A DNA stretch of 34,204 bases from a virus. Location: the UHGV virus genome UHGV-1976995; one strand, given 5' to 3'. Below, piece by piece: positions 24,287 through 24,601 of this stretch (position 1 is its first letter; the number at the start of each line of letters is the position of its first letter). The notes below the pieces were generated by a model. It saw nothing but the letters and a program-made list of their open reading frames with translations. It made no database searches and was not told where the DNA came from. The translations under genes were made by a program, and so were the position numbers.

Positions 24287-24601
24287 ATGACACACATGAT
24301 CTTTCGTCATGGCGACATGAAGAAATGGAAAGGCGTTGGATACGACTTTGAAATCGTGAAAGCCGAAGAGCTTCAGGAATATCTGGATGCTGGCTGGTTT
24401 GCACATCCTGATAATCTTCTGAATGATGTTGCAGAGCCAGAGCCAGAGCCAGAGCCAGAGCCAGAGCCAGAGCCAGAGCCAGAGCCAGAGCCAGAGCCAG
24501 AGCCAGAGCCAGAGCCAGAGCCAGAGCCAGAAGAAAAACAGCGTAAAAAGCCTGGTCGAAAACCTAAGGCGGCAGCAGATGAACCTGACAACGAAGGGTG
24601 A
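24287..24601 (+). CDS. small protein with (Glu-Pro)16 repeat linker and basic tail
   Basis: ATG at 24287 behind GGAGA; N-terminal about 48-aa domain, (EP)16 encoded by a perfect hexamer repeat, then [11 protein letters not shown]. Confidence 0.55.
24434..24529 (+). repeat. perfect (GAGCCA)16 hexanucleotide tandem repeat
   Basis: 96 bp of uninterrupted GAGCCA units, in frame within the 24287..24601 ORF. Confidence 0.95.

Follow-up and report, generated by a model that had tools for sequence, protein, structure and literature searches.

A GAGCCA coding microsatellite of variable length encodes a Glu-Pro spacer in the orf69 homologue of a P22-like phage

UHGV-1976995 is a viral DNA of 34,204 nt (the window; positions are whole-window coordinates unless a locus record is named) that derives from a P22-like phage of the genus Lederbergvirus. 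On its plus strand, at 24434..24529, it carries a perfect array of 16 GAGCCA hexanucleotides, identified by direct reading of the sequence, by Tandem Repeats Finder (TRF) and through homologous arrays of 1-33 units in relatives. The array encodes (Glu-Pro)16 and lies within a 104-aa gene (24287..24601, +) homologous to orf69 of P22 and gene 6 of epsilon34. It is almost certainly a hypermutable in-frame repeat of this orf69 homologue. We consider it likely that this coding microsatellite forms the spacer of a small late-operon protein, that its length is driven by replication slippage, and that changes in length are tolerated. That spacer length is close to neutral is, taken by itself, a reasonably probable reading, held with less assurance.

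A prediction made earlier from the nucleotide sequence alone (the original prediction) had described a 96-bp perfect (GAGCCA)16 at 24434-24529 within a coding region, and this description held. Sixteen uninterrupted units were read inside the 104-aa gene, and TRF reported positions 24432-24531 with a period of 6, 16.7 copies, 100% matches, no indels, and a score of 200. The next-best tandem array anywhere in the window scored 61, and (GAGCCA)16 is thus its sole strong tandem array. A chance origin is excluded because a run of 90 consecutive matching bases would be expected only about 34,000 x 4^-90 times in 34 kb. In the coding frame, the array is read GAG CCA (Glu-Pro, sixteen times), and all six frames through it are free of stop codons. 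A weak 6-bp periodicity was also recorded at 4591-4674 (TRF, 63% matches), inside a minus-strand open reading frame (ORF) at 4218..5186 for which a Pfam search gave no match. It was rejected as a second microsatellite, being Glu/Ala/Lys-rich coding sequence that resembles a coiled coil.

The original prediction regarded the array as slippage-prone and suggested a comparison with homologous loci, naming identical copy number across related genomes as the outcome that would count against it; copy number was found to differ. The 701-nt region around the repeat matched 219 records in 217 of 5,426 complete Escherichia coli genomes (~4%). Among the 90 E. coli matches listed, 82 differed in span from the window by an exact multiple of 6, implying between 1 and 33 units, most often 7. 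The remaining eight were one further base off, and in the one examined (L026) the extra base lay upstream of the ORF. All 15 E. coli prophages read at the DNA level contained perfectly pure GAGCCA arrays, with 6, 6, 7, 7, 7, 7, 9, 10, 10, 11, 15, 20, 24, 29, and 33 units, compared with 16 in the window. One pair, CUVET19-1704 (dog, Thailand) and STEFF_1 (wastewater, Hong Kong), showed no mismatches over 10,647 aligned bp and a single 6-bp gap, that is, one unit. Six prophages separated by no more than 6 single-nucleotide polymorphisms over a 3.3-kb flank had 7, 10, 10, 11, 15, and 20 units. Since these six are separated by no fewer than four changes in length and by roughly nine point differences, the array would, as a rough estimate, mutate at a rate on the order of 10^3 times that of any one nucleotide in the flank. 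Stable copy number was also seen, with 10 units in both L020 and L047 and 6 in both L023 and L049. Head-to-tail identical units, together with whole-unit differences between identical or near-identical genomes, are what is expected of a hypermutable microsatellite or variable-number tandem repeat (VNTR). Contigs from IMG/VR and distant Enterobacterales relatives from other genera carried separately homogenised arrays of GAACCA (12 units), GAGCCT (29 units), GAGCCG, and GAGCAG (6 units); the last, from Erwinia, encodes Glu-Gln.

Arrays of 100-200 bp approach the length of short reads, and PGAP flags the 29-unit allele as a pseudogene, both of which could suggest that the array or its variability arose from assembly or sequencing error in a low-complexity stretch. 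However, arrays occur at this locus in 217 complete E. coli genomes, as well as in phages that independent laboratories isolated; they differ in length by exact multiples of 6, without any loss of frame; and the 29-unit allele translates intact. A technical origin is therefore barely credible. An ON/OFF phase-variable contingency locus was likewise excluded: changes by 6-nt units do not shift the frame, every allele examined encodes an intact protein, and there is no promoter-like site nearby.

The Glu-Pro frame is taken as the coding frame on sequence evidence, because the N-terminal domain is under purifying selection, the flanks are nearly invariant, and the 104-aa protein matches PHROG 1175 (E = 2.3e-31). 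For the 47 codons preceding the repeat, the ratio of nonsynonymous to synonymous substitution rates (dN/dS) was 0.03-0.28, with dS rising to above 1 in comparisons with relatives from other genera. Among the 120 homologues listed, both flanks were nearly constant, change being confined to the linker and occurring in 2-aa steps. The corresponding entry in the ORF list (24239..24601) starts at a GTG; the real start is the ATG at 24287, which has a GGAG ribosome-binding site upstream.

The original prediction had also held that the repeat creates long artefactual ORFs in the other frames and on the other strand. Three such ORFs were found, all kept open because the repeat is stop-free in every frame: 24423..25079 (+), 24038..24748 (-), which would encode 236 aa with a (Leu-Trp)n tract, and 24373..24642 (-), with a (Gly-Ser)n tract. 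The first of them has already entered public records. It runs from an ATG at 24423 through the repeat into gp4, the P22_Tail-4 head-tail adaptor gene, so that the repeat could be read as a (Ser-Gln)n N-terminal extension of that adaptor (24423..24578, +). Gp4 is annotated in this way in the RefSeq record of IME10 (NC_019501; locus record 1827-2432) and in Dewey (1825-2418), and the record of phage Louie has the same extended-gp4 overlap; records of the IME10/Dewey type leave out or truncate the real small ORF. Against this assignment, in eight of the 11 distant relatives the gp4 ATG is cut off from the repeat by a stop codon, or gp4 is in frame with the small ORF. The Pfam P22_Tail-4 profile (PF11650, E = 2.8e-58) aligns from residue 2 of the 166-aa form, which begins at the true start, 24579 (gene at 24579..25079, +), and it is the Glu-Pro frame that has a conserved domain and a conserved tail on either side of the repeat. 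It is exceedingly improbable that the repeat belongs to gp4, and the extended gp4 of public records is probably a mis-annotation that arises because no frame is closed within the repeat. A +1 frameshift inside the repeat that would fuse the orf69-like gene to gp4 was also considered and rejected, the gp4 frame being closed upstream in most distant relatives. The APC_JM3.2 record annotates the small ORF and a repeat_region correctly. The PGAP flag on the 29-unit allele of E. coli ECONIH6 (locus record 5186-5578, 'missing C-terminus') is a repeat-induced annotation artefact; this allele encodes an intact 130-aa protein.

By sequence homology and by its shared position after a stem-loop, the window gene is assigned to the P22 orf69 / epsilon34 gene 6 family (PHROG 1175). 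When P22 orf69 (NP_059631.1) was compared with the family profile, hhalign gave a probability of 99.6% (E = 3.5e-24). It occupies the same slot, between coat and gene 4 and after the stem-loop, and has a 7-aa non-repeat linker (PVEADDV) between an N-terminal domain and a basic tail that are homologous to those of the window protein. An exhaustive HMMER search yielded only 33 family representatives at 50% clustering, and a second homologue search using the family alignment returned mainly the same close relatives. The family architecture comprises an N-terminal domain with invariant G36, W37, and P41, an acidic linker that is usually rich in Glu-Pro, and a basic tail. The order coat / orf / gp4 is kept in relatives from Citrobacter, Kluyvera, Buttiauxella, Rahnella, and Erwinia, and all six members at 37-44% identity sit between P22_CoatProtein and P22_Tail-4 genes.

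In a longer variant, a 195-aa 'WDGH domain-containing protein' (P0133), the N-terminal domain is the same and the tail identical, but a WDGH domain (PF25311) of ~100 aa replaces the linker. This variant fills the coat-gp4 slot of other P22-like prophages in E. coli, and also that of Salmonella phages ST104, SE1Spa, and BTP1; in phages of Listeria, Bacillus, and Klebsiella, the WDGH domain is widespread on its own, as a free-standing domain. Very large changes are therefore tolerated at the linker position. The epsilon34 genome paper describes homologues of epsilon34 gene 6 as differing markedly in length, with a role unknown as of 2008 (PMC2629481), and the part of that paper citing Eppler et al. 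1991 gives orf69 as non-essential in P22 in the laboratory. The length differences treated in the literature on these genes are internal deletions from a long form, in contrast to the hexanucleotide microsatellite described here; the comparison suggests that this long form is the WDGH-domain form. A literature search found no paper naming the locus as a marker or describing a GAGCCA microsatellite, and nothing relevant on the WDGH domain; a match to ORF69 of Stx phage Sp5 concerned an unrelated gene.

At the protein level, the orf69-like product consists of a conserved 48-aa N-terminal domain, an (EP)n spacer, and a conserved basic tail. The domain (24287..24433, +) was modelled by AlphaFold2 as a β-hairpin and a helix followed by a GWxxHP motif and a short helix. 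The predicted local distance difference test (pLDDT) score was ~90 for residues 1-40 and ~72 for residues 41-50, and the linker and tail were of low confidence. The tail (24530..24601, +), delimited by sequence and family alignment, has 23 aa and contains KKPGRKPK. The original prediction of an in-frame length-variable linker agrees with this arrangement, in which the array parts a conserved, confidently modelled N-terminal domain from a conserved basic tail and is itself predicted to be disordered.

The N-terminal domain has no family in Pfam or NCBIfam, no solved structure resembling it was found (a sequence profile search of the PDB gave noise only), and its matches in BFVD were restricted to uncharacterised phage proteins. 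It shares the motif V..(D/E)EL..YL..GW with the repeated modules of a GIY-YIG homing endonuclease (P0138), modules that are themselves not in Pfam. Although phmmer gave E = 1.1e-5 for this comparison, hhalign spanned just 19-22 columns at 66-77% probability, and the connection is a lead only. For the tail, which may be a putative nucleic-acid-binding segment, membership of the AT-hook family (PF02178; an R-G-R-P core in a basic context) was considered. Neither the KKPGRKPK tail of the window nor P22 orf69 gave a match, and distant members with an RRGRPPK tail scored 14.0 and 11.6 bits against a cut-off of 17.4, so that the likeness to an AT-hook is a resemblance only.

Replication slippage is the most likely mechanism. 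On the pure GAGCCA tract it would gain or lose whole 6-nt units, and because it moves whole units, both the orf69-like frame and the overlapping gp4 start would stay undisturbed; slippage would also keep the units homogeneous. In the protein, only the length of the acidic Glu-Pro spacer between the N-terminal domain and the basic tail should change, and this spacer is probably extended, as are other (X-Pro)n segments. Copy number would then mostly drift, while selection on the protein would retain the Glu/Pro composition. A broad tolerance of spacer length is indicated because 1-33 units, the short linker of P22, and the WDGH insertion of ~100 aa all occur at this site.

Several points weigh against the reading of a slippage-driven, length-tolerant spacer. 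The evidence for variation comes from comparison between genomes, and long arrays could be mis-sized in some public assemblies. Pure arrays persist where dS in the flanks exceeds 1, and most of the family has kept Glu-Pro; such persistence could reflect selection for the repeat or for its mutability, and not simple tolerance. P22 itself lacks the repeat, and the tract is therefore not required for family function. Moreover, the near-neutrality of spacer length is something that we infer.

This persistence bears directly on the possibility that the array is an adaptive tuning knob. Here, the length of the spacer would determine a distance or valency important for function, such as that between a DNA-bound tail and a partner of the N-terminal domain, and a slippage-prone array would be kept for rapid change, much as in a contingency locus but without ON/OFF switching. 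Such a role would fit the retention of pure arrays, in several unit variants, in lineages with flank dS above 1, the wide allele range (1 to 33 units) with fast change between near-identical prophages, and the recurrence of Glu-Pro composition across the family. However, P22 reportedly does not require the gene (PMC2629481), P22 and other members function with a short non-repeat linker or a whole inserted domain, no correlate of copy number was seen in phenotype, host, or source, and the purity of the array is expected from slippage alone. We consider adaptive tuning of this kind unlikely. A more specific and more doubtful proposal is that of a two-ended tether that would bind DNA through the AT-hook-like tail, and either DNA or a partner in the capsid or portal through the N-terminal domain, its reach being set by a stiff (Glu-Pro)n rod. 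The hexamer array would then be kept as an evolvability device for quick retuning, for example to host factors or defence systems.

The length-tolerant spacer also has to be weighed against a role of the repeat in RNA or translation. The repeat lies in the head-assembly block, downstream of the P22-type coat protein gene (22947..24242, +; PF11651, E = 1.3e-165) and upstream of gp4, which is followed by gp10 (25079..26497; PF11134). Between the coat stop and the orf69-like start lies a terminator-like hairpin, GGGAGC-UUCG-GCUCCC plus a U tract (24248..24275, +). It directly follows the coat stop and has a UUCG tetraloop, a folding energy of -20 kcal/mol, and z = -3.0; the P22 record has an annotated stem_loop at the equivalent position (6102-6119 of the P22 locus record). 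Acting as a partial terminator or as a stabiliser of the mRNA, this hairpin may set how much coat protein is made relative to the downstream products; a promoter-like site was found neither near it nor near the repeat. At the other end, the gp4 start overlaps the last 23 nt of the orf69-like gene, and an AAGG inside the tail-coding region is likely the gp4 ribosome-binding site. The repeat could accordingly be seen as an mRNA spacer between the hairpin and the gp4 start that modulates gp4 through translational coupling, an idea favoured by the hairpin immediately upstream, the 23-nt overlap, and the position of the ribosome-binding site. This is very improbable, given the strong protein-level purifying selection on the N-terminal domain and the fact that the orf69-like and gp4 genes do not overlap in some relatives (L029, L030, and L032). 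Consecutive prolines are a known strong ribosome-stalling motif, but the tract alternates Glu and Pro without consecutive prolines.

The locus behaves as known in-frame 6-bp VNTRs and as a TonB-type (X-Pro)n spacer do; it represents a well-known kind of phenomenon and not a new kind of system. In-frame 6-bp VNTR loci, such as STTR5 in yohM and the VNTRs of E. coli O157, are used for typing Salmonella and E. coli by multiple-locus VNTR analysis. As in those loci, hexanucleotide units lie within ORFs and are gained or lost as whole units by slippage, faster than point mutation; unlike them, the window locus lies in the structural operon of a P22-like prophage. With the (Glu-Pro)n(Lys-Pro)m spacer of TonB and with engineered (X-Pro)n rigid linkers, the window protein shares alternating Glu-Pro dipeptides between functional ends. 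An extended, stiff conformation is expected of (X-Pro)n linkers, and deletion of the spacer is tolerated in TonB. In contrast to TonB, the window protein has no membrane or periplasmic context, and the TonB tract is not encoded by a pure DNA microsatellite of variable copy number. A match to TonB_N (PF16031) reached 19.3 bits against a cut-off of 33 and was dismissed as compositional. The EP procyclin (PARP) of Trypanosoma brucei is similar in that a long (Glu-Pro)n tract is encoded by tandem DNA repeats, but homology was rejected: the Pfam score was 19.5 bits against a cut-off of 100, and this unrelated eukaryotic surface glycoprotein resembles the window protein in composition only. A slippage-prone tandem repeat in a gene of a P22-like E. 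coli prophage is also found in neuO of CUS-3, whose heptanucleotide repeats are noted in PMC2629481 by citation of King et al. 2007; there, gain or loss of the 7-nt unit shifts the frame and turns the gene ON or OFF, whereas the 6-nt unit of the window alters length only.

Elsewhere in the window, a mosaic boundary lies just past gp10, at ~26497-27198 (7362-8315 in the records of relatives L020-L023). Identity drops there from ~97% to ~86% or to no alignment, and the window encodes a 233-aa needle-type tail protein where a 317-aa 'tail needle knob protein' is encoded by the relatives closest to it at the repeat locus. The nearest cultured relative, coliphage IME10, is 96% identical over 80% of a 25-kb query. 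Some close relatives, unlike the window, have opposite-strand HNH endonuclease genes between scaffold and coat and after gp10 (E. coli GPEC1446 (L026), locus record 3259-3774 and 7449-7940; Dewey, locus record 1-278). These genes look like mobile homing-endonuclease insertions into the head gene block. An 11-bp direct repeat, TTGTCCAACGG, forms two clusters, at 9760-9791 (2.9 copies) and 9826-9854 (2.6 copies), inside an ORF at 9374..10264. This ORF, for which a Pfam search gave no match, is located immediately upstream of a DnaB-like helicase gene (10239..11690), and the clusters look like replication-origin iterons within an initiator gene.

The repeat accounts for recurrent annotation errors, namely the extended gp4 of the IME10 RefSeq record, Dewey, and Louie and the false pseudogene of the 29-unit allele. 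It introduces a fast-evolving, in-frame length polymorphism into the head-assembly genes of P22-like phages, a block that is otherwise very conservative. The locus could provide a high-resolution marker for P22-like prophage lineages in E. coli, and its alleles, from 1 to 33 Glu-Pro units together with the domain-insertion variant, constitute a natural allelic series for probing the function of P22 orf69.
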